Of a stretch of DNA of 64,000 nt, positions 35,648 to 51,500 are shown piece by piece. The DNA lies in the NCBI GenBank assembly GCA_026023565.1, contig JAPETS010000026.1, positions 372,001 through 436,000 on the forward strand, written 5' to 3'. Origin of the DNA: Cirrosporium novae-zelandiae (taxonomy: Eukaryota). Position numbers and translations under genes: made by a program. A model generated the notes under the pieces. The model did no database searches and was not told the origin of the DNA. It worked only from the letters and a program-made list of their open reading frames with translations. The first letter of the stretch is position 1, and every line of letters begins with the position of its first letter.

Positions 35648-37528
35648 GGTGGTATTCAACAGAATATTCAACAACTGGTAATTAAAAGTTAGCATGTGAG
35701 GATAGAAATATATTATTATGATTGGGAAACTCGGACACGACTGTCGCAAAAGAGATATCTCTGTATACTTACTTGGTGGTTGTTTAATAACAGACGAGCA
35801 GTCACATGAGTCGATGGTGAGTACAGGTCAAGTTTTCGCGATGGTGGAATGACGGTGAATTGGTGAATGGAGGACTCGATTATGTAGAGACATCCGGTTA
35901 ATAAGGATGATTAAGGGAGAAACCAGGTGACATGAAACTCTATGGTGCACACACAGATGAAACGAAGAGGTTCTGGTCTTGGAAAGTCCTTCCAAAGCAG
36001 AAATAGAGAATGAGATGGGATTAGAAAGTATATAGGTTTATTCAGAATAGGCAAGGCAATGTAGTCTATGTAGTTCTTCAAACTCTTTTCATGACGCGCC
36101 TCCCCTCCCTCAGTTTATCAACCGAAATGGCGGTATTCGCTAATTGTTCGTTAAGACCGGGGAAGGCATTACCCCTGAAGGCCTTGTACGGGATACTCTG
36201 ATTGGCTGAAATCTTTTAACTTTGTCATTAAGGTCTCCGCTCCTTCCCGTTCCTGAAAGCCGGATGCGATTGCCTTGATATAATCCACTTAAGCCAATTA
36301 TTAACAACCACACAACACCCGAGAGACACCTCATCCTGCATATAAAAAATACATCCCATACCGAAAGTGAAAAAAAATGATAAACAAAAACTTTGATAAT
36401 TTTCTACTTTTGTATGTGTTGGCAGAAAATCCCTCGTAAATTACTTTTCTTTCATTACTCAACCTACCTACTGTAACCCCCCCCCCATCAGCCTACAGCA
36501 GTAACTTGACTAGATTTTCTCCCTGTTGTCCATCCAAGTGTGAATGGCCTGACAAGTAACCCACCATAAGGCCGGCAGGGCTTTCATATATGAATAGCTA
36601 TCGCTGAATGGTTGTGATGCAAAACGTGTGCCTTAAAGTCAATCTACATTTCACATGAAGACCCGCCCGTTTGGCTCTGGACCGCATGTACTCTATCAAA
36701 GCTATTCGCGCTATTCGTGCTATTCGTGCTATTAGTAGGTACAGTACAGTACATGTAGCTAGTTATCATTTCCACTGTGCCGGCTGAGAATAAAACAGGT
36801 CAAGCCAATGCTACTGAACAAAAAAAAGGTACAAGATACATGTAACAATCAACTGTCTTTGCACGTGAAATCTTGATGCATTCTCTCTACCAGAGTGGAT
36901 CGAGGCTGCCTGTGATAGATTTCGATTCTCTTCTTGCAGCTGGCCTAAAACTGTACAGTAGTTCAAACACACACGGCTTTTGCCATAAAAATCTGGATCC
37001 TCTCAAATCCCTTTAGAACATGGATGACGAAGACTCTCCCCATGGATTATATTTATTTATTAATCTATCCAGCATGAACCTTCGTTACATGTCATAGGAT
37101 TCTAGTGAAACACCACGTTTTCATAACAAAAGGTTCCAGCGCACCTTGAAACTCTACTCCGCAAGACACCTCAGGATCCGATCGTCAGCTCGCCACTTCA
37201 CTTAGACTAAAAGATTTTCTAATCATAAAACATACTCCAAACGTAGTTTTGCAAATAATGAACATCAAAGGATTCTTTGATGCTCAAAGGACCAAGAATG
37301 GAAAAGATGGATTTTCCCCGCTGCGGAGTAGTGTGATGATAAAAGTAAGCAAATACGAATCTTATCACCTGAACAATTTGTAGATCATCGAGTCCAATCA
37401 AGGATGACTTGGTTACTACCTAGGTATATAGCGAGGTACATTGATATATAACTCGACACTTTTAAGCCAAAACAGCCCCCACCATCATCATTAATTCATC
37501 CTATCTAGCCGCGTCAACCCACCCCACC

Positions 37529-38741
37529 ATGCCTCCCTTGTCTCTTCCACCAACTCCCTCAATCCCTATCTCGGGTTTCCCTCCCGGCGCCTCTCAAGGT
37601 TTCATCACCCTCCCTCATAAACCTTCCGTTCAAATAAACTACTTCTTCGTTCCCCCAAGCCAGCCCACCCAATCACCCTCCACCAAAAAACGCCTTCTCG
37701 TCTTCCTCAACGGCTTAATATTACCCCAAGAATATTGGAAGCCCACCATCTTAGCTCTCACGCAGAGATGTGGACCCGATACCGAACTGCCAGCCATGCT
37801 CAGCTACGACCGGTACGGGCAGGGCCTTACCGTAGACCGAGATCCCCACGACCAATGGGGAGAAGAAGGATACGGCCACGATTTAACAGATACGATAGAA
37901 GATCTCCACCACCTAATAACCCAAATCGGGCGTTTAAAGCTTGATCGAGGGAATCCATTCTCCCATAACTCGCAAGGACAACCACCGCTAGAAGTAATCC
38001 TTGTAGCGAATTCCATCGGCTGCGCCATCGCCCGCCTCTACGCTCACGCACATCTCCCTTTAGTCACAGGTCTCGTCTTCCTAGATAGCATGATGGCAAA
38101 TTCAAACTTCGATTTCTTCCCGGATCCCGACGCCCCCAGCTTCGACATGTCCGCCTTGCCCAACGACGTGCAGGACATCGGGGTGGAGGGATTAAGATTG
38201 CATAGAAAGAATTTCCTGGACAGGTTCCATCCTAGTGTGAAGAATGAGGAGGGGTTGGATAGGAGGAATGCGGCAGAATTATTGCCAAAGGCGGGGAAGC
38301 CCGTACTGGCTGGGCCGGCGGAGGGGATGTTGGCTGTTGTGGTTGTGGAACATGATCCGCAGACATTTGCGGAGCACAGCTTTGAGGTGAGTGAGGGGGC
38401 TGATTGAATCCCTTGGCTTTTTTTTTCTTTTTCAATCGAATTTCCTTCTTCCAGGAGACACACATACACACATTAACCCCATTTTCTCCCCTCCCAACCA
38501 ACCACAAAACCCAACTACAATAACATATACAAAACAGTCAATGGGCACCCCCATCCCCCTCTCAAATCACTACACCAACCCAATCTGGAATACCTACAAC
38601 AAAAATCTAGTAAAAATCGCTGGCGAAAACGCGATTGCCAAAGGTCCGATCATTGCCAAGAGGTGTGGCCATTTTATCCAGAGGGATGATCCCGAGTTCG
38701 CTGCGAATATAATTTTGGCGCTTGGGGATGCACTGCAGTAG
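37529..38741 (+). CDS. Alpha/beta-hydrolase fold protein; 2 exons
   Basis: Exons 37529-38386 and 38538-38741. 'LVFLNGL', 'SYDRYGQG', nucleophile elbow 'VANSIG', C-terminal 'CGHFIQRDDPE' (putative catalytic His). Confidence 0.88.
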
Positions 38742-40294
38742 GAGTTCATGGTTCTTAGTATGTGGTATCCAAGGGTCACTTCGTTGATCCATCCCCTCCC
38801 AAGAGGCCTTTGGCCCTTGAACATATTTTATATCCCTGAACTTATAACTTACTTTCAATCATTTTCATCCTCCAATTCCACTCCTCCATACCTACCTTGA
38901 TCCAGTAGCTGCTCTCCCGCTCCCTCCAGTTCCTTCCGCATAGCTTCTTGATCAGGATAGGGCGCTGTCCTTGTGGATTTTAGGATTACATGACAGTCGA
39001 AGGATAAAAAAGCTGTGCTTATTTAAATCTCCATGGAGGATACCCATTTCATATATTTATATCACAATAACCTCACGGGGAGGAAGACCCTTAATAGTAG
39101 CATATACCTTCAACATGTTCGAGAACGAATCTGATGAGCCGGCCTTCTATCAAGTGTCCCAGGAACTCTGAGCTGACATTGTTTCATGCCTCAGGCATAA
39201 ACAATCATGTGATCGCAATTGGCCCGTGCTCGCACCTCCTTTTATATACACCGCTCATCTGTAGATTAAATGAACAACTATCCATGCTGAACTGTCCTTT
39301 CGATAATTGTGGCCCTCGATCCATGAGTATTCCCGTGTATCGGCAATACAGTGTCCAACTTCTCAGTCGAATCTTGCGTGTTTGATAAGGATAGGTCTCT
39401 CGGACCGTGGAGAAGACGCTATGTAGGTGTGTGGTGTAAGCATCTTGTCAATGTTGGAGGAGAGGCAACTAAAGTGCTTTGGAGACCAGGGAGGGGTGGT
39501 TGAGCTGAAATATTTCCTGCAGGCCTCTATGAAGCATGGTGTAGTGCTTCCGGTAGCTTGCGTAGCATGGTCGGAATCCCACTCGCCTTAAGGAACTAGG
39601 GCAGTTTTTCTACCAGAATCGAAGGGAAGCAAAGGTCATCAGCGTCGTAAGTTCTTAGATCAATAGCGGTATGCTTCAAATGCTTTCCATCAACTAGCAT
39701 TATGTAATAACCAGGCTCATTACTGCGATCTATCTTTTAGTTCAAGACAGAGATGCTGGGAGACTCCATGGTGTGTTGGCAGACCTATCGAGGTTCCCGG
39801 TGCCATTAGAGAATCTCTTTGACATGAGTGCCGATATGGCTTACTATCTGGAAGTTCTGAGGCTAGAAGACTGTTGGGTGATACTGCAGGAATAATGGAA
39901 GTTGACTTTGTAGGTCAATTCCTATTGCAAAGAGACGTAAGTTCTTCGAAGAGGGACTCCGTCGCATCTGTGTCTAGAAAACAACCGAGGATTAGGATAT
40001 TCTAATGAGGTGAGTATTTGATAAGCTTCCAATGATCAGTCGGTTAAAAGCGCTGATCTAAATATTTTGCCATGTATTCGATAGTCTCGAGATCTTCCAC
40101 TAAAGGTGAGCAAGATATACAATAAGAAATTGCAACATGCATGGAAAGGCTACCTAATGTTGGGGTACAACGAAAAAAAAATCAATAGACACCAGGGTAA
40201 TCAGGAACTAGATTATCTAGCGACCAAAGGAAAAGATCATCTCTCTTTCATTTTTCATTTTTCCTGTTCCTTATGCAGATTATGGGTTGGCATA

Positions 40295-40338
40295 AAGGCG
40301 ACATGCGGACAATAAAATGAGTCATCATCATCATCATC
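40295..40338 (+). mobile_element. 5'-truncated non-LTR retroposon (SINE/LINE 3' end), copy A
   Basis: AAGGCGACATGCGGACAATAAAATGAGT(CAT)n flanked by a perfect 13-bp TSD ATGGGTTGGCATA (40282-40294 and 40339-40351). Confidence 0.8.
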
Positions 40339-41440
40339 ATGGGTTGGCATATGAGGGATATCGGAGACATAGGCCTATGTTAACACAGCTTATATTATAA
40401 TCATCATTCACGGCTCTATCATCAAAAAGAGAGCTGGAATAGTCATATTACATCAAGGAGACAAAAATGGTTGGCATAGAGACGAGTAGGGAGGTTAGAT
40501 GGCTGAGGGAAACTTATTTGAAGGAGTGTAGAAGGGGAAAGTGATTTCCGTTTAAGGGGCATCTAGCGGCCGAAAAGTGGTGGTGCCAAGAGCCTTTCCA
40601 GCACTCTACTCTATCTTATATTTCTATCAACAAAGATACCACGCAAAGTGAAATTAATCTTTGTCCTGTCTTAAAGATATTTCGACCCATTACGCAAGAA
40701 GGTGCAGATATATGTTTAGAATCCAAGTTAAATCGCGGCCAAGCAGTCAAATAGATGCCCAACTTAGTACCCTATCCAAATTAGAAGAGTTTCAAGGCTC
40801 GTGGAACATCTAGGCAACTGGGCTAATTATACTATATTAAGAGTTCATTGGGGCTTCCGTACTGTCCATTGACTCGCCTACATCATTCTCTAGAGCTGAC
40901 TAGGGTAAGATGGCAGACCTCCCCTCCATCTTATCCAGTGATGAATATCGATGGAGAGCTGTACAGAACCCCACGGGTTCCAAAGGTCTGCTCTCAACAG
41001 TATCAAGGCTATGAGGCCTCCTCCTCATTAGCAGATGGACCATAGATAAGACAATCGCAATCACCTTGCCCTATCTTGTTCTCGTCGATATAGTAACATA
41101 GCAAAGGATGTCTTCCTGCAATCATTACCTTGCACAATACTATCCTCTTCAATATGCTTAGATACGCCCGGTTAGTCTCCCACCCTGTTCCGAAACACAC
41201 CCGTTCCTTCGGGAGCCCGTGAAGAGACACTATCACTCGTGACCTAGCTAGTGTTCTGGGAGACTGAGCCAAGTTCTCTCGCATCCGATTCATGTTGAGA
41301 TGAGCAATCTGTTGCCGAGTTAAGCTTTAGGATACTTGATTTGGCTAGTAGAGAAAATATTTTGATCTGCCGTGTCACATAGATGGGCAGATTTCAAAAA
41401 ATTTGAGATCATGTCCTTGATGCTGTTCAAAGGAACGGCG

Positions 41441-41903
41441 TCTTACTGACATACGCCGTTTCTTTTTCGAGGGTTTGCGAGGACGGTACTGGTATGAGGA
41501 TGGTCAGGGGGGTATTTGGCTTTGAGCTCTCTGGCTTGTCTCTCAAACATCTGCTTCACGGGGGGATATTCATTTCTCCATTGTTGACCCATAATGATCG
41601 CTAAACCGATGTCAGTACGATACAAAGCATCAGTAGAATATTAGCTCACATATTTGATTATTATGAAGCCCGGGAAGGGGGCATAACCTCCCACCACCTC
41701 TAGTTAAAGGCATACCCGCAAGGGGGAGCTGGGGGCCCGCAGCTTAGGCTACAAGCCCACTGGCCACATCCGCCATAGCTTGTAGGCGACATGCGGACAA
41801 TAAAATGAATAATCATCATCATGAAGCCCGGTATTGTTTTCTTTGACCTGAGGATAGTGATGCTGTCTGTAAAGGATGAAGGTATTTGGAGGGGAATCTT
41901 GGT
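41441..41903 (-). pseudogene. Decayed MAT1-2-1-like (MATA_HMG-box) gene interrupted by a retroposon
   Basis: After removing the insertion, one TSD copy and intron 41649-41601 (GTGAGC...CTGAC...TAG, splitting a T|CG Ser codon), the sequence reads KIP/PNTFILYRQHHYPQVKENNTGLHNNQIS|IIMGQQWRNEYPPVKQMFERQARELKAKYPPDHP/YQYRPRKPSKKKRRMS, with two frameshifts (/). Confidence 0.8.
41674..41820 (+). mobile_element. 5'-truncated non-LTR retroposon, copy B (147 bp), inserted in the HMG box
   Basis: Ends ...GGCGACATGCGGACAATAAAATGAATAATCATCATC; 11-bp TSD ATGAAGCCCGG at 41663-41673 and 41821-41831. Confidence 0.85.
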
Positions 41904-42381
41904 GGTGCCAGTCCGTTTGGTCGTTTAAATATTCCATAACAGCTATAAACTCAGTTTAACGACACAAAGGATCATTCAAGCACCCGACCTCAGATCTAAG
42001 TGTTAACTAGCAATGTGAAGTGTAGCTAGAACCTCGAAAGAGAAATCACTTGACCTTCTTCCCAGTTTGATTTTGAGGGGAAGCCAAGCCAATGGGTAAA
42101 GCTCCTCGCGGGCTCATTAGAAGGAAATAGGCCAACAATAGTTCAAAGTATAGGTCCGGTCCATCAAACAGACCAAAGGGCCTTGTAGAAAGCCCTATTC
42201 TGTCTGGTTGGAAATGCCTGGCATAATGAAAGCAAGCCTACTCAAATGTTTGAGCTGTAGACGAGCTATGGAGATCATATTACATTGGTAGAGAAGGTCT
42301 GGTCCAAGCTTAAAATAACGAATTGGAAAGAAATTGAAGACTAGAAAAGATGACAAAGTGCTCAAGTAATAGTAAGCAATA

Positions 42382-42434
42382 GATATCCGCCATAACCCGA
42401 AGACGATATGCGGACAATAAGACGAATAATCATC
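42382..42434 (+). mobile_element. 5'-truncated non-LTR retroposon, copy C (more diverged)
   Basis: GATATCCGCCATAACCCGAAGACGATATGCGGACAATAAGACGAATAATCATC aligns to the 3' end of copy B; 14-bp TSD AATAGTAAG(C/A)AATA at 42368-42381 and 42435-42448. Confidence 0.75.
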
Positions 42435-42786
42435 AATAGTAAGAAATACTTGAGATCTCTAGCCATTTAAGGAAAATGTATACCAGAAAAATGTAACGAT
42501 CCTTCAAGAGAACTTCCTACTTGACTTCAAGACTTGTTGCAAGATGAAGGTATAACGGTCTGGTAAATAGCATATGAAATCGGAATAAAAAACCAATTCT
42601 CTCACAATGCGAGTTATCTGATTATAAGATAACTGCCTCAGGCATTGACAGTGATTAGCCCACGGCCCCGCGTGAGTCGCGTCATAATTTCGTAGCTGTC
42701 TACTCCCACAACTTGCAAACAGAAAGCAATCGTGAGATAATGTTTGAAATTGAAGTTCGATTTCTTAGTTCCAGTCCTATTTACCA

Positions 42787-43729
42787 ATGCTATATCAATC
42801 TAGGTTGATTCTCCGGCACACATTTCCCGTTTCCATATTCAGGACTGGCGTAGCTACAATGTCGACATTTACCTTGCCAAATACTACCCCAGAGGTTCCA
42901 GTGCATTTGGCTTCAGGTCTCACAAAAGATCAATTGCTTTCCTTTCCTGCCTTCAAGAACTGGATCTCTACCTTGAAACATTCATTATCTTTGCAGCAGT
43001 GTAAAAGTCATACTTTCTACGATGCACCGTACAAATTACGAAGAATTGAGATTCAAGCTGTTGATTTCTTTGGAGAATCCAAGCTGGGCTTTGTGAAGCT
43101 AATTGCTGATGTCTCAAATGACAATGGTGATAAACTTCCAGGTAGCGTCTTCTTGAGAGGAGGAAGTGTTGCTATGTTGGTATGGTTGTACTAAATTATC
43201 TGTGTGGCTTGTTGCTAACATCTTTCAGTTGATCCTCCAACCTGATGATACCCCCACCGATAGCGAAAAGGATAAATATGCCGTCCTTACCATTCAACCT
43301 CGAATAGCCGCCGGGTCTCTCGCAATGTATGAAATTCCAGCTGGAATGATTGATGATAGCGGATCCTTTGCTGGAAAGGCTGCCCAAGAAATTCAAGAAG
43401 AGACTGGTCTCGAAATTTCACAGGAAGAACTTTATAACCTCACCGAAGCTGCTATTGAAAGTAAAGATGAAGAAAGGCTTCAGAATGCTGTATATCCCTC
43501 CCCAGGTGGTTGCGACGAGTTTATCCCTATATTTTTATGTCGTAAACGAATGCCAAAAAAAGAGATTGAGGAATTGCAAGGCAAGCTAACAGGATTACGT
43601 GAACATGGGGAAATGATTACACTGAAGCTGGTTCCATTGGAGAAACTTTGGCAAGAAGGTGGTAGAGATGGAAAAGCACTCGCTGCCTGGGCTTTGTATG
43701 AAGGACTTCGAAAGGCAGAGCGACTATAA
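42787..43729 (+). CDS. Nudix hydrolase, ADP-sugar pyrophosphatase-like (plant NUDX14-type); 2 exons
   Basis: Intron 43180-43228. 'QAVDFFG', 'KLGFVKL', 'PGSVFLRGGSVAML', variant Nudix box 'EIPAGMIDDSGSFAGKAAQEIQEETGL', 'YPSPGGCDE', 'GLREHGEMITL'. Confidence 0.88.
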
Positions 43730-43909
43730 AACAAAGATCCAAATTTTACGAGACTTTGATAAAGTAATTTCTACCGTCTGGTGCATATTCAAAGAATATA
43801 TTCATGAATTTCTAGTTATCTTAGACAAACACCGGTCAATCTATACATTGCGCGCCATCATAAGATTGTGTCGCCTTGTTCTATCACCGATAATCAATCC
43901 ATCTAAATT

Positions 43910-44734
43910 TCAGAGCTTCATTCTTTTAGCCATCTCGATTCCTTCAGCCAAAGTGCCCACCCTAGCATCTATGCCGTAACCTTCGCTTTCTAATTTTTTG
44001 CACTCTTTATACAAGTCTCTAATGGGAACTGTGAAGCTTTCGATAAATTCATTTTCTTCTAGTTGCGGCTTGAGGTTTTGGTTTTCGGCCAGTGACATGT
44101 CGACAGTTACGTGAACCATGTTGAGATTGGTGTTGCAAAATCCAGGATCTAAGCCAACCGAGTGTTAGCAGAAAGCGAGGGTACGTAATTGATAGATGAA
44201 GTACCATTATACATAATTGGACTGATTTCCTCGGCCTTTCCTACATAACCAGTTTCTTCGTGTAATTCTCTAACCGCACATTCCTGTGGGGTTTCTCCCT
44301 CATCGATAAGACCTGCAGGAACTTCGATGACGACCTTGTTAACAGGTGGACGAAATTGTCTCTGCAAAAGCAGTTCTGGGCCTGTATCTTTGTTCAAGAT
44401 GGTAACGATTCCGACGCCATCGATCTCAGAACCCTTTGGTCGAGTCTAAAAAAAAAAAAAGACTTGAGCATATTTTTCCTCAGAGGATTACAAGATAGTT
44501 TTTGAAATTTTCATAGATGACGTACCTGACGTTCAGCGGATTCCCATGTCCTGGTGGTCCCAAGAGGATCTTCATATATTGTCTTCACCAATCTGGTCCA
44601 ACGAGCCTGTGCGGGGTACTTGCGATATAGAGTTAGATAGAAAGTAGATGGGCCGATAAGATGAAAGGGAGAAATACCAATGGCTCTGTAAATTTGACCT
44701 TGGCATCGGTAGCTTTTGGACTGGTTTCTGGCAT
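43910..44734 (-). CDS. YSA1: ADP-ribose pyrophosphatase (Nudix, NUDT5-like); 4 exons
   Basis: 'YEDPLGTTRTWESAER', 'LLQRQFRPPV', canonical Nudix box 'PAGLIDEGETPQECAVRELHEETGY', 'DPGFCNTNL', 'PQLEENEFIE', 'IDARVGTLAEG'. Confidence 0.88.
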
Positions 44735-45825
44735 TTTGATTGCGCAAGAAGTAATTTTTTTACTGTAGTTTTTGTTCTTGGTGTTTTTTTCCTGATGTTT
44801 ATCTAGATGGCTGAGAGATTGTGTTCCACCCAAGTCTCAAATCTTGTAGGAGACGCTAGCGAATCAGACGCTTCAAAATTGTTTTCCAGACCGATAGTGT
44901 TTTGCAGAAATAGTTCCCCAAGTCCTCTTCATATGCAAGAAATTTCCCATGAACTACTGTGTCACTGTGTATGGGCTTGGCTTTGGAGGTTAATTATCAT
45001 CAGACGATATATGCTTTCAGCCTTTCAATAATCCATTACTTTAAGACATTCTAGCACGCAATAATTGAAGTAATTGATCAGTGCTTATAGATTGAGTTAC
45101 CCTAGACCACCCGATGAATCTTGGTCTACTCACAGACTCAGCTACGTGCTGCTATTCAGCGTAGTGAATGGCGTACAATAATTGAAAGCAATATCTGCTC
45201 TTTTGTAACCTTTGGGGTTGACCATGAGATGAATGAAGCAACGTTGGGTATTGTGTCATGTAGATTATTTTTATCCGGGAACCCTGGTCAGGTTAACTTT
45301 TCTCCCGTATCAACTGATGCACACATCCAGTTCCCAGTTCATCGACTAAAAGTAGTCAGGCAGTAGGCAAGTCCCTCAGGAAATTCCTTTTCGTTGGTGT
45401 TGACCTAATTTAGAGTCAATGAACCCCCTTTTTGGTTCTTGCAATCAGCTATCAATTCGACGATTACCTGTGTGCCATATAGTGTGCTATACAGTGTGCC
45501 AGGCTACGTGCCAACCTGTGTCCAACCATCCAACCAGGTCTGTGTTTTTGTTGTGCAAAAGCTGATCAGCGAACAGTGCCACTTAGAAACAATTTGTTCC
45601 GGCCAAGCTCTGACGGACAGCTGACGGACAAGTTATAGTTTATCACTTTGATCCTAATTCGGAATAAGAATCTCCTCTTTCTCTCTAGTCCCCTTGAACT
45701 CTTTCCTAGCCAGAGCGGACCACTATCTTCTTCTAGGAATGATAAACTTCTCCTCGAATGTTGCAAATGATCAATGATAGCTCAGCCCAATTTACCCTCA
45801 AAAATTGAGGATTCATAGTTGTATC

Positions 45826-45870
45826 CTGTAGTCTCTGTAGTCTCTGTAGTCTCTGTAGTTTCTATAGTCT
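45826..45870. repeat. 9-bp tandem repeat (CTGTAGTCT), 4-5 units
   Basis: Direct reading: CTGTAGTCT CTGTAGTCT CTGTAGTCT CTGTAGTTT CTATAGTCT. Confidence 0.85.
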
Positions 45871-46390
45871 TGCTGTCGCTGCTTGAGGGGGGGAACGTCC
45901 TTGTGACAAGGTCCTATATTCGCCCATGATTTCTATTTTCTGTCCCTCATGTTTCATATACTGCCTCCAACCCTACAGTTATCTTAAGCATCCTCTCTTC
46001 GCTGTTGTGTTGGAAAGTACCTTTGTTCTTTCACTCACTCATTCCAGCTATACAGCTTCTGGTCGTCTTTAATTTGTTTTTTTACTATCTCCTTGTCTAT
46101 ATAGTTACATTCATTATATTAATCTTTTTTGTCTTTACGCGCCACACTGCGCTACTCTTCCAGTACCATATCCAGCTATATTTTAATAGTGAAACAGCAC
46201 CCAGCCTATCATTCATCTACAGACAATATCAATTGTGGCTCTTCCTGACATGAACGCATGAGCCAGGTTAGAAAACATTCAAGCTGCTTTTTGACATTCA
46301 ATACGGATTGGAACCTTGAGTTCAACTGTCCATATTTTGTCTATTCTATTCAGTGCAAACCTGAAGGCGACCATTTATATATTTGCCACC

Positions 46391-47632
46391 ATGACTTTTT
46401 CAGGAGCTGCTTTAACCTTGTAAGATTGCTTGCTGGCCAAGTCAAGACTATTCTAACTCTGAGGATAGGGTCATCATCGTTCCAATCGCCTTGCTTGTGG
46501 GTGGAGTGGCCATTACCAGATTTTGGATTGATAGAAAAAAGTGCGCCTGAAGAACTTTGTCTGATTGCTAGAGTTGATACTGACAGTATTCTAGGTCGCA
46601 AAAGCCCAGAAGAATAGCAGATGAAGAAGCCTTACCGGCTGGAGCGATAGAGAGAGATGCCCAATATGAAATGAGAACCTCGATTCGCGCGGAACCTCAC
46701 AAGCCACCTCCGATCATCATCACCACGCGATCGCGTTCTCCGTCAGATTCAACGTCTACAGCCACTACCCTACTCGGGAGTCCTGGACTGACAAAGCATA
46801 GCAATGATTCCGTCAATTCTCTTGTCCTCCCAAATACACCCAAGACGAGTTCTCCACTAGCTCTACATCCAGTACAAAGTCCTACTACACTCAACGGGAC
46901 ATTATCACCTACCTCACCTGGACTTGTTCCTGGAGATCGTCAAATTGCTGTACATACTGACGTGTATATTTCACCTATGCATTCTCCCACATTTCCCCTT
47001 TCTCCTCAATATGGGTATGGGAACAGAACCTCAATACATCGATCAGCAAGCATGGCTTCATCAGCCACACAATCCACTCAGGACACCAGGATCTACGTCC
47101 AAGAGGATGCGCCGCAGCTTTCTCTTCCAGAAGACATTGGCACGACATTCCGACGCAATTCAAAAGGGAGTGACATTGTCATGCCATCAACCCCTACCCG
47201 TCCTAGCACCGCTCATAAGTCAATATGTGAACCAATCGATGAGAACAGTGTTTCGGACTTTAATATGGAGACGACTCCACGTCGGGTTCTGAGCCGCGGT
47301 CGTGGTGATTCCTGTAAGAAATTTTGTACTTCATGATCCAACATGGAAATAAAAAGACACTAATACCATCAGCAGTGGATATCCCGCGCTCCCCTGTAAC
47401 TAAGCCCCCTCGCGTCCTCTCCGCCGTAGGTGTTTGGGGTGCCGAAATCTTCCGTGAAATCGACCAAGCCCTCTCCTCTTCTGAGGACGCGAAAAGCGAA
47501 AAGCGTCACTCGTTCCTTAGCCGCAAATCCTACTCCAGCAGCAGGAAATCAATGACAAGCCACAAGAGTGAGAAGAGGGTGTCGAAATCTGGAATGACGA
47601 GGAAGACTACATATGACCACTTGATTAGCTAG
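46391..47632 (+). CDS. Hypothetical single-pass membrane protein with Ser/Thr/Pro-rich disordered tail; 4 coding exons
   Basis: GCCACC-ATG at 46391. Exons 46391-46419, 46469-46540, 46595-47313 and about 47373-47632 all join in phase, giving MTFSGAALTLVIIVPIALLVGGVAITRFWIDRKKSQKPRR followed by the 46671 ORF. Confidence 0.75.
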
Positions 47633-48467
47633 GCTGGGAGAAAGAACACAGAATCACATTAATGAGAATATGATTATTGTTGTTTTCCGGGTCGGGTTGG
47701 AGAGGAGGATCAAGTCAAGGCACAAGAAATTATTATGTCTGTGGTGGAAATCCAAAATATAGGGAGGTCGAGGCTTCCGAGTTGCATCACCCTCAAGTCA
47801 ACAGTGCAGAAAACCCACGTACGAGTTAACATTCACATCCATCATGACCGTGAAGGATGGAATCTTCTCACCCTGAGTCGAAGAAACCACTCACCACGAC
47901 CGATCAAGGGATTCATCCCGTCCACCCCGCATCCGCCCTTAGGGCCATCATAAACATCCGCCGCCGTTACCTCTAACAAACGCACGGCCCACATCCCGCA
48001 ACCAGCGGGTTCCCTTAATGTGCCTTTCGCGACACATCCACTTACCTACCAATCATTTACCTAACGAGCCACGTTTACTTATTTTATTTATTTACCTACT
48101 TGGGAAAAATATATATATAACCCACCCTTAATCATTATTGCTTAATTTCCATGTCATGCCATATACAGGCACGCATACGTACATACCTATCTAATCCCAT
48201 TTCTATTCTATTTCCATATACCCACGACGCGACAACGACACGACGAACGTACCGCAACGCAATTGGGATAGCTCTTTTTTCCGAACGACTAAGACAGAGA
48301 AATACTATTAATGACGATCGGAATGAAAGCAAATCAAAGCGAATTAAATATTGCGGGGTTTTGTCTGTTTGGGAATTTGTTTGTTGTGTGATGTGGAAGT
48401 GCTTCGAGAAGAGAAGAGAAAGGATGTTTGAAGGATAATTATGAAAGTTGTTGTTGTTGTTGCATTT

Positions 48468-48472
<5 letters not shown>

Positions 48473-48513
<41 letters not shown>
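48473..48513. repeat. (TG)n microsatellite
   Basis: About 20 TG units read directly. Confidence 0.95.
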
Positions 48514-48516
<3 letters not shown>

Positions 48517-51500
48517 GAAGAATTGAAGACCTGAAGATTCGAAGATAAACGAAGGAAATTGTTTAGTTTGAAAGACACGAAAGTCGTTGTATCCTGTACC
48601 GTATGTGTTTTGAAGACTCGAAGATGAACGAAGGAAAGAAGTTATTCTAGTTTTAGTTGGATTTTATTTTTACTCTTGCTTGATACCCCCTATTTGTTTG
48701 TTTGTTTGTTTGTTATACCTTGTTACTGTTACTTTCTTTTTTTTTTTGCTTTTCATTTTTTTAAAGCATTGTATCGTATCATTCTTGCATTTTGCATAAG
48801 CATAAACATAAGCATTATCATAGCGAATTCATCATCTACATCTATCATCTACATCTACATCTACCTATTTAACCTCCTATCCACCCAGACTCATTCGCTC
48901 ACTCACTCATCCAAAGAAAGAAAGGAACCATGAAAACATATATAGTATAACTACGAACACGAATATAGGCACACACAAAAAGTGTACCTACCTACCCCCT
49001 TTTTTTCAAGTTCATTGACTTTATAGAAAAGTCTTTAGTAAGTCTAGCGACAAATTTCTAAGAAGACATTTCTATATACTATATCTACCTAAGGTATATA
49101 ATTAATAAGTCCCAAAAGTTCCACCCATTTATTTATTTGTAACCCTTTCAATCCCCCACCCACATCTTGTTTATTCATGATTTATTTATTCCGTGCCCTC
49201 CCCCTTTTTTTTGCACTTTTGGTCATCTCATATCCATATCATGTCCATATCATCTTATCTTATATAATCCCATTCCATTCCCTTGCACTGGTACATGCAC
49301 ATGCGCAGTACAAGTACAATAAGTTATATCCATATCCATATCCATATCCATATTCATACAAGTTCAACACACGACCAAAGCCCTTCGGTCGGTCGGTCGG
49401 TCGGTCATGGTTGAGTTACGCACTATATGCACCATGCCACCATGCACCATACTCAATGCTCAATAATAAATAGCATGCAAGTACAATTACTAGGTTACTC
49501 AGTAATTAACCCAAGTTAATTTTTTTTTTCTGATAATTTAATAGTTTATTTTATCTTTATCTTTTTTTTTTTTTTTTTTTCAGTTTTTATTTTTTTAGCC
49601 TTGACCCTTTAAATCCCCCCAATCCCCCCAATCCCCCCATACTCGCGAATCTTGGGGTTTCGGGTTTCCCATCTAGACTCTGGAGTATTTGTAGACGGAG
49701 CGTCCGGGAGTAGATGAAAAGATGAAAAGATGAAAAGATGAAAAGATTCCTTTCTTTGTCTACTTTGTTCAATGCGGGTCCTTGATCTATTTGTTTATTT
49801 AGTTAGTTGATTGAGCGTTTGGTTGGCTTGGTTTGGAATATTGGAATGTTGGAACGTTCAAGGCCAAGATTTATGTGTATATATATATACATAATACACA
49901 GACATTCATCATCCGACACCCAATAGCCAACACCCAGCCCAGCAGTCTTATTCATAACCCCATACACAACCAACCAAGCACAATACACACGCATCACAAA
50001 TATAAGCAACCAGCCAACTGACGAATCTAACAAAAAACCACCAACCATCACCATCACCAACCCCCTCCTCTCCTCTCCCCTTCTCCGAATACCAATACCA
50101 AACATCCTCAAATCGAAACCCCTATAGGATCCGCTTAACCTCCCCCCCCCCTCTTGCCCTCCCCGTTCATTGATTTTCTAACGTAAGATATTATAGATAG
50201 ATAAGTCCAAGGAACCTAGAATTTTATTTTAATATATTACCACCACACCAGCAGTATCCCCAGTACCCCCAGCATCACCACCATCGGGGCGCGCGTGGGG
50301 GAGTGTAAGCCCATATCATCCTCCTTCTCCCCTTTAGTCTTTGTTAAATCGTCCATGGTTTTTATTTATCAAGACCATAACAAAAAAACTCCTGGTTCGC
50401 GACCATTTGGTTCAACCCGATTAGTAATGTTGGTCAAACGCTACTGTTGCTCCCGGATTTCTTTTTGTATATTATTTACCATTTTTTTTTCGCGTTTCGG
50501 CGACGATAGCTAAGGCGCTATGGCAAGCTTGAATTGTTAGATCCATTTCTAGGTTCTTTGTAGCAACTGGGTTCTGGTTTAGGAAAGCCGTAAGAGAATT
50601 TGGTTCGTGTTCTTTTTGTGGTTGGGCTTAATCTTCATTATCACTGCCATGCTACCATTTGCTAGGTACTTGAGACCTGAGAGAGAGTAATAGGTATTTA
50701 GGAAAGGGTGAGTATGTATCACTACCCTTTCCGCCAAAGGGGGCTATTCGTTATTTGTTATTCGTCAAACCTGGAAGCCAGTGGATAGGTCAGTATTCCT
50801 CACAACACAATTACATCAATAATCTCCCCCTTCTTCTCCTCTCCTCTACTCTTCTCGATTTAGATCTCTTCTTTTTGTTTCCAATGAAGCGAAGCGAAAC
50901 GAAGTAAGTTCCTCGGACCTCGGACTTTAGCTTTTTTTTCGAATAGCTGTGTATAATGTGTATAATGTGATGATAATGTAGTGATAAGTGATGTGATGTT
51001 GGGGGGTGAGGGTGAGGGTGATGGTGGGTGGGACGCTTGGAGGTGTGTTTTTCGAGCTGATGCTCTTCATGGACAAGCACAAACAGCCAGAACACTAGAT
51101 TTCTTTTTCCCATCGAGTATATATGTCCTCACCCGAGGCCTCCCGTAGGAGATTTGGTTTTCTTTTTCTTTTTTTCGCTTTTTTTCCTGCCTCTTGCCTC
51201 TTTTTCTCTTGATTATTCCCATTTCCATCCTCTAGTAAATTATTAATACATCCATCCCCATTCCTTCTCTTGTGGTTGTGCTTGTGAAGAAATAGAAGAA
51301 ATAAGGCATAAGGGATGGGATGGATACGGGGTTATTTCCATTTCCCGATAATATATATTCCTCGAACTAAGTTTGTTACTTAGGGTTAGGTTGATAATGA
51401 AGAAGAGGAATGGCGAGAGAGAAAAAAGAAAGGGTTTTTTTTTTTTGATGTGATGGACTTTAAATTCCTCGGGCTTGATCTGACTTTGTTTGAATAGTAA

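Follow-up and report, generated by a model that had tools for sequence, protein, structure and literature searches.

The window analysed here, a 64,000-nucleotide stretch of the Cirrosporium novae-zelandiae genome (contig C48, 372001-436000), almost certainly carries a copy of some 320 bp of the mating-type gene MAT1-2-1 that is non-coding, retains an intron and comprises the HMG box and the nuclear-localisation tail. The genome also has the working gene, which is undamaged and adjoins SLA2 on contig C43. The copy was broken by the 5'-truncated end of a LINE and by two small deletions. Coordinates without a contig name are window positions.

Anatomy of the broken HMG box and its LINE insertion

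The HMG box lies on the minus strand (41927-41450) and is split into two pieces. Two minus-strand ORFs among the 146 of the window matched Pfam HMG_box, one running from an ATG at 41937 to a stop at 41749 (E = 0.0019) and the other spanning 41625-41443 (E = 7e-5). The 5' half of the box, part of exon 2 (41821-41927, 79% identical to C43:261525-261635), carries a 4-nt deletion near 41892. Exon 2 ends with NNQI and the first base of a Ser codon (41650-41662), followed by a 49-nt GT..AG intron (41601-41649) in phase 1, inside the Ser codon of the NNQIS motif. The start of exon 3 holds the 3' half of the box and the basic KKRR tail (41450-41600), with a 1-nt deletion near 41494, and homology stops at its end. 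All of these parts are on the minus strand. Alignment to the C43 paralogue places these two frame-shifting losses in the window copy at about 41892/3 (4 nt) and about 41494/5 (1 nt). The exons show no other gaps; 229 of 273 exon positions are identical (84%) and amino-acid identity is 84% over 80 columns. The anatomy given in the first-pass annotation (two HMG halves, a 147-bp insertion, a target-site duplication, a 49-nt intron and two frameshifts) is thus confirmed in the sequence.

The window copy retains a MATA-type HMG box with a KPSEKKRR-like basic tail. It does not qualify as a functional MAT1-2-1, being interrupted by the insertion and two frameshifts and lacking exon 1 and the C-terminal part. 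Its intron lies within the Ser codon of an NNxIS-type motif, as had been recognised earlier, at the position found in the C43 gene and in SLA2-linked homologues. It is identical to the 51-nt C43 intron at 31 of 52 columns (about 60%), with nine transitions and eight transversions over 48 aligned sites, and keeps a consensus donor, branch and acceptor. Retention of the intron indicates that the copy was made at the DNA or pre-mRNA level and not from cDNA.

A DNA search recovered the C43 paralogue at about 80% identity, intron included and without the insertion. With the 1.45-kb C43 gene as DNA query, only two places in the genome matched, the gene itself and the window. There are 13 HMG matches in the genome, and the window copy matched in DNA only the SLA2-adjacent C43 gene; the others presumably belong to ROX1-, STE11-, NHP6-type and similar genes, which they resemble. 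In a tree of 71 rows and 83 columns the row nearest to the window copy was again the C43 gene (path 0.22, next 0.87; SH-aLRT 99, ultrafast bootstrap only 44), the end branches of the pair being 0.19 and 0.023, respectively. ROX1-like, STE11-like and MAT1-1-3 rows were placed elsewhere. The comparison with MAT1-1-3 and non-MAT HMG proteins that the first-pass annotation had proposed thus points to SLA2-adjacent MAT1-2-1. MATA-group HMG boxes resemble one another, and resolution of the tree is poor overall (39 of 68 inner branches open), but with the DNA match confined to one gene a non-MAT HMG gene or MAT1-1-3 is very improbable, as is an assembly artefact. The original proposal of a decayed MAT1-2-1 HMG box that a retroposon has interrupted is supported.

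Only a single run was found to contain this DNA. Four Logan contigs of one run (X1) tile 40000-43000 with no differences and no gaps. Run X1 is possibly the source of the assembly, and the contigs are then a re-assembly and not an independent isolate. Their base-for-base agreement excludes assembler error as the cause of the frameshifts and insertion, an objection raised in advance, with the proviso that the same run may underlie both. Contig depth was 344-360 over the window copy and 362-379 at the C43 copy, the level of a single-copy locus. No allele without the insertion was found in the X1 Logan contigs besides the C43 paralogue. Elsewhere in the assembly, contigs C35 and C47 gave identical matches at identical coordinates, and it seems to hold a duplicated contig.

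The insertion (41674-41820, plus strand, antisense to the MAT gene) is 147 bp of a LINE 3' end, 5'-truncated and with an (ATC)n tail. It is flanked by target-site duplications at 41663-41673 and 41821-41831, exact over 11 nt, the repeat extending to 13 nt with one mismatch. Its family has at least 39 other matches (40 scored of 77 candidates). In six of ten LINE-like loci the family tail follows a LINE-type reverse transcriptase on the same strand at a distance of 1.9-2.3 kb; in a seventh the distance is 4.4 kb, and three loci have no such tail. Repeats of at least 8 nt flanked 11 of 26 other copies (10 without one whose repeat is the tail itself), compared with 3 of 130 control positions. The tail shared with RT-bearing elements and the flanking repeats together identify the insertion as a 5'-truncated LINE end, putatively Tad1-like. 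A ribozyme or SINE head had no Rfam support, a search of the insertion returning nothing but two snoRNA matches at chance level (E = 2.3 and 6.7).

As in other fungal non-LTR retrotransposons, there is 5' truncation, a target-site duplication, a short tandem-repeat 3' tail and a set of RT-bearing parents. Unlike in those elements, most copies (22 of 26 examined) are reduced to the final 50-55 nt, with almost the same starting base. Two such separate short copies of the same 3' end (family D1) lie nearby on the plus strand at 40280-40330 and 42385-42435. By eye, the common start is at the foot of an apparent stem-loop. The short copies keep their C and G, and the full-length parents are RIP-damaged. 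Insertion would have been target-primed, the established LINE mechanism, the target ATTATT beside the duplication resembling the (ATC)n tail. At the mismatch in the 13-nt duplication the left copy agrees with the intact gene, and the Pro-to-Thr change is found in the right copy. This substitution probably post-dates the insertion, although the two further matching bases could be chance.

The working MAT locus and a MAT1-1-1 relic

The C43 MAT1-2-1 is intact, encodes 407 aa and has introns of 52 and 51 nt. SLA2, the only I_LWEQ match in the genome, ends about 2 kb from it. The window copy had been called relocated or duplicated. A duplicated or captured piece fits our results; relocation does not, as an intact MAT1-2-1 sits beside SLA2 on C43. 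The genome search that had been suggested for an intact MAT gene at the MAT locus succeeded for MAT1-2-1 and gave no intact MAT1-1-1.

Among 71 SLA2 loci from metagenomes, POL3 was present in 20, NVJ2 in 21 and APN2 in 22, mostly in the order POL3-NVJ2-SLA2-MAT-APN2 (lichen-like loci). On C43, POL3 abuts APN2-COX13-APC5 (C43:349700-362000), and an inverted NVJ2-SLA2-MAT1-2 block (C43:260600-271000) lies about 92 kb from APN2-COX13-APC5. Judged from gene order, the working SLA2-MAT block has evidently moved away from APN2 by about 92 kb. No repeat common to both ends of the rearrangement was found.

Two further genes were observed at this locus. A lysine-rich ORF with no Pfam family lies just past the MAT1-2-1 stop and, by resemblance, is possibly a transposase relic. 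An auxiliary gene at C43 ~262300-263100 (L028:336-1117, plus strand) adjoins SLA2 and is transcribed away from MAT1-2-1, a position and orientation that are reminiscent of yeast MATa1 beside SLA2. Homologues occur in 10 of the 71 SLA2 loci. Its exon 2 matched the Pfam Homeodomain below cut-off (E = 0.012), one homologue reached E = 0.0004, and searches of PDB gave no significant match. The gene resembles lichen MAT1-2-14, which has been reported without a homologue outside Lecanoromycetes. We do not regard the homeodomain as new, since one has already been noted in such genes of some lichen species (PMC6414310).

The window itself lies outside the usual MAT context, as first described: SLA2 and APN2 are on C43, and neither family was matched among the 146 window ORFs. 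The neighbours of the copy are one alpha/beta hydrolase gene (37466-38741, plus strand) and two Nudix genes, of which one flanks it at 42769-43729 (plus strand); the flanking genes are not MAT-related, and none of these neighbours was found in any of the 71 SLA2 loci. The named protein closest to the flanking Nudix is 99% identical and carries the label Cirrosporium novae-zelandiae. Segmental duplication together with neighbours was rejected, since short repeats were all that matched 38700-41449 and 41925-48700 in other places. In Pycnora the Nudix homologue and the HMG homologue are on contigs of different length. A second short repeat family is present at 39180-39307 (about 128 bp), with copies 76-78% identical on C107, C47/C35 and C40.

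A decayed MAT1-1-1 fragment of about 280 bp was found on the 600-kb contig C42 (135916-136197, minus strand; L189). It covers the last part of the alpha box plus the conserved region that follows, has four stops in 94 codons, and is flanked by a steroid reductase-like gene on one side and a histidine phosphatase gene on the other. Two MAT1-1-1 proteins taken from SLA2-linked metagenome loci were used as queries and both matched only this piece in the genome. A 7-sequence MAT1-1-1 profile matched it with E = 1.8e-11 within 50 kb, the next best match being above 7. A 7-sequence profile that recovered both of its positive controls detected no alpha box across 150 kb of C43 or 104 kb of C48, and none was seen in 105 short ORFs near the window fragment or the working MAT locus. 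A PF04769 search of the genome, run without a positive control, gave no match. An intact MAT1-1-1 was thus not found in the assembly, which may be incomplete. The C42 piece and the window copy are two dispersed MAT relics.

Extent, divergence and origin of the window copy

Homology is clear over some 320 bp (insertion excluded), starting about eight codons ahead of the HMG box and stopping just past the basic tail, and both ends fall within about 30 nt of the HMG domain limits. Local alignments of the upstream and downstream flanks to the C43 gene scored 72 and 67, inside the shuffle range (30 of 200 and 134 of 200 shuffles, respectively, scored as high). Simulated neutral divergence of 0.575 with indels gave a minimum score of 123 in 90 runs. 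The flanks scored below all of these simulations and are thus not homologous at the depth of the box. In line with this, a profile built from 72 full-length relatives recovered exon 1 of the C43 gene and nothing beyond the HMG box in the window, and blastn found no remaining MAT1-2-1 parts around the fragment. One stretch just upstream (41929-42028, minus strand), a weak possible continuation of exon 2, was identical at 40 of 100 positions when aligned ungapped at a +4 offset (P = 0.0015 uncorrected, one of 15 offset/length tests). A gapped anchored test of the same stretch was not significant, 6 of 60 random windows scoring as high. The weak similarity suggests that more of MAT1-2-1 may once have been present at the site.

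Over 88 codons the window copy and the C43 gene differ at 39 positions, 25 of them third positions. The differences fell at 13 of 171 zero-fold, 16 of 60 two-fold and 10 of 33 four-fold sites, and the window copy has no stops in these codons. Nine of the 14 amino-acid differences give it a residue seen in none of 82 homologues, indicating that most of the protein change is post-death decay; at L53 and C80 it is the intact C43 gene that carries a residue absent from homologues. Simple counting gave an omega of 0.14 and P = 1.5e-9 against a copy dead from the start. We set this P value aside because it ignores transition bias (kappa near 10) and overstates the case. Maximum likelihood gave an omega of 0.23 (95% range about 0.10-0.50) with dS 0.44. 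Neutrality along the whole window branch was rejected on 88 codons (p = 0.004-0.009) and with the intron core added (p = 0.0005-0.003), in all eight all-codon fits, and was not rejected on the 33 conserved codons only (p = 0.14-0.15). The fitted neutral phase was 0.03-0.10 of a total of 0.40-0.47 substitutions per site. With moderate confidence, the window copy appears to have spent most of its divergence under selection.

RIP has a size limit of about 400 bp. The RIP composite indices of the two MAT1-2-1 copies are -0.69 and -0.89, so neither is RIP-marked, whilst a RIP-like signature (composite at least 0.45) was present in 22 of 30 reverse-transcriptase loci.

We tentatively prefer, as a possible account, that a short DNA fragment was pasted in from a functional MAT1-2-1 already diverged from the resident gene. 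The low omega, the short extent and the absence of RIP make this the simplest account, and we also count in its favour that the C42 MAT1-1-1 relic is itself a fragment of similar size. Donor and resident would differ by roughly 0.3-0.4 synonymous changes per site and would represent different allele or species lineages, one of the two (fragment or resident idiomorph) having introgressed. The fragment would have been dead on arrival and short enough to escape RIP. It may since have drifted neutrally by roughly 0.03-0.1 substitutions per site and would have no function now. No close relative was found as donor lineage in the collections searched, the best homologue being 72% identical. Homology ends close to the domain limits fit selection on the HMG box itself as well. 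One such reading, quite unlikely in our view, is an HMG-box-only mini-gene (for example a dominant-negative regulator) that was long selected while its flanks eroded and was then killed. It accounts for the low omega and the matching ends and would also be short enough to escape RIP, but the original HMG frame has no start codon: it is closed by a stop immediately upstream, and the ATG at 41937 came into frame only through the 4-nt deletion. No precedent was met in the literature searched, none of which was aimed at such mini-genes.

We consider it rather unlikely that the copy derives from a former full-length second MAT1-2-1 locus. Here extra unlinked MAT genes, MAT1-2-1 at this site and MAT1-1-1 on C42, would have made the fungus homothallic, and both would have died and lost their flanks on return to a single MAT1-2 idiomorph, with the LINE perhaps as the knock-out. 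The same selection signal would be expected, the window intron keeps its consensus splice signals at only 60% identity, relics of both idiomorphs are present, the working MAT block is itself rearranged, and unlinked MAT loci are reported in Hymenoscyphus fructigenus (PMC10569646) and in others. Against this, exon 1 and the 230-codon C-terminal part have left no trace, and a RIP-competent lineage would be expected to have RIP-marked a full-length duplicate, which is seen in neither copy. The two relics also lie on different contigs among unrelated genes, having no neighbour in common with the 71 SLA2 loci, and their ages look unequal, with four stops in 94 codons on C42 and none in 88 in the window. 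A plain dead-on-arrival copy of the direct ancestor of the resident gene needs no extra event and fits the short length and the absence of RIP, the low omega then being sampling noise combined with strong transition bias. The conserved codons do not reject it and an omega of 0.5 is at the limit of the estimated range (2dlnL = 3.99). It is fairly unlikely nonetheless, given its rejection in the eight all-codon fits and the eight transversions at 48 intron sites compared with one at 33 four-fold sites. The diverged-allele fragment stays our preferred, if tentative, account.

MAT relics and mating-system history

One intact idiomorph at the MAT locus together with fragments of both MAT genes elsewhere is also the situation in Cercospora beticola, as far as it is summarised in PMC7368123 and bioRxiv 10.1101/2020.04.14.040725, where dispersed exon fragments of MAT1-1-1 and MAT1-2-1 (Bolton et al. 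2014) were interpreted as the trace of a homothallic ancestor. By those accounts the Cercospora fragments are intronless, RNA-derived and homogenised by concerted evolution, in contrast to the window copy, which keeps its intron, is single-copy and LINE-broken and shows 16% exon divergence. A DNA-level move of a MAT gene to an unlinked site with introns kept is described for Eutiarosporella darliae, which has an ectopic MAT1-1-1 with introns (bioRxiv 10.1101/2020.04.14.040725), and for Hymenoscyphus fructigenus; unlinked MAT loci and truncated MAT genes are presented as common in Leotiomycetes (PMC10569646). Those moved genes are, however, intact and of the opposite type, giving homothallism, whereas the window piece is dead and of the same type as the resident. 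Decayed partial MAT genes in heterothallic genomes are likewise described for Botrytis and for MAT1-1-x of Lepraria (PMC10569646, PMC11515122). As described, these lie within the MAT locus and arose by unequal crossing-over or deletion, whereas both relics here are on other contigs. The window copy is thus a neutral relic of an already known kind, the dispersed MAT relic. No publication on MAT genes of Cirrosporium was found in a search that was thin on subscription papers and did not take in supplements.

The first-pass annotation had raised lost homothallism or asexuality. Asexuality is not supported by the feature, as the working MAT1-2 idiomorph is intact and the reverse-transcriptase loci carry RIP-like damage, which implies past sexual cycles. 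Lost homothallism is possible, and the decayed C42 fragment adds support to it; intact MAT1-1-1 and MAT1-2-1, which together in one haploid genome mark a homothallic, were not both found in this possibly incomplete assembly. Two of the metagenome loci (L127 and L128) do have both genes together downstream of SLA2, a homothallic-type locus. The intact MAT1-2 idiomorph, the RIP-like transposon damage and the relics of both MAT genes are signs of a sexual past and probably of cryptic heterothallism. We think it unlikely that the genome documents a return from homothallism to one mating type in a fungus without a known sexual stage. In that reading, two functional MAT1-2-1 lineages, evolving apart, would once have coexisted with an unlinked MAT1-1-1; the extras would have been lost (one via the LINE) and the SLA2-MAT1-2 block would have left APN2.

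The relic has a practical consequence, as typing of MAT1-1 isolates by degenerate HMG-box primers or tBLASTn can yield false MAT1-2 calls from it. Origin from a diverged allele would make the fragment a fossil of MAT introgression. Cirrosporium is placed in Xylobotryomycetes, its sexual morphs being given as not known (PMC6712537), and the relic has some value because this class is isolated and, according to the same source, the family is without a known sexual morph. Loss of sex is not shown by the window copy; the MAT1-1-1 relic and the selection signal keep a homothallic past or MAT introgression possible.
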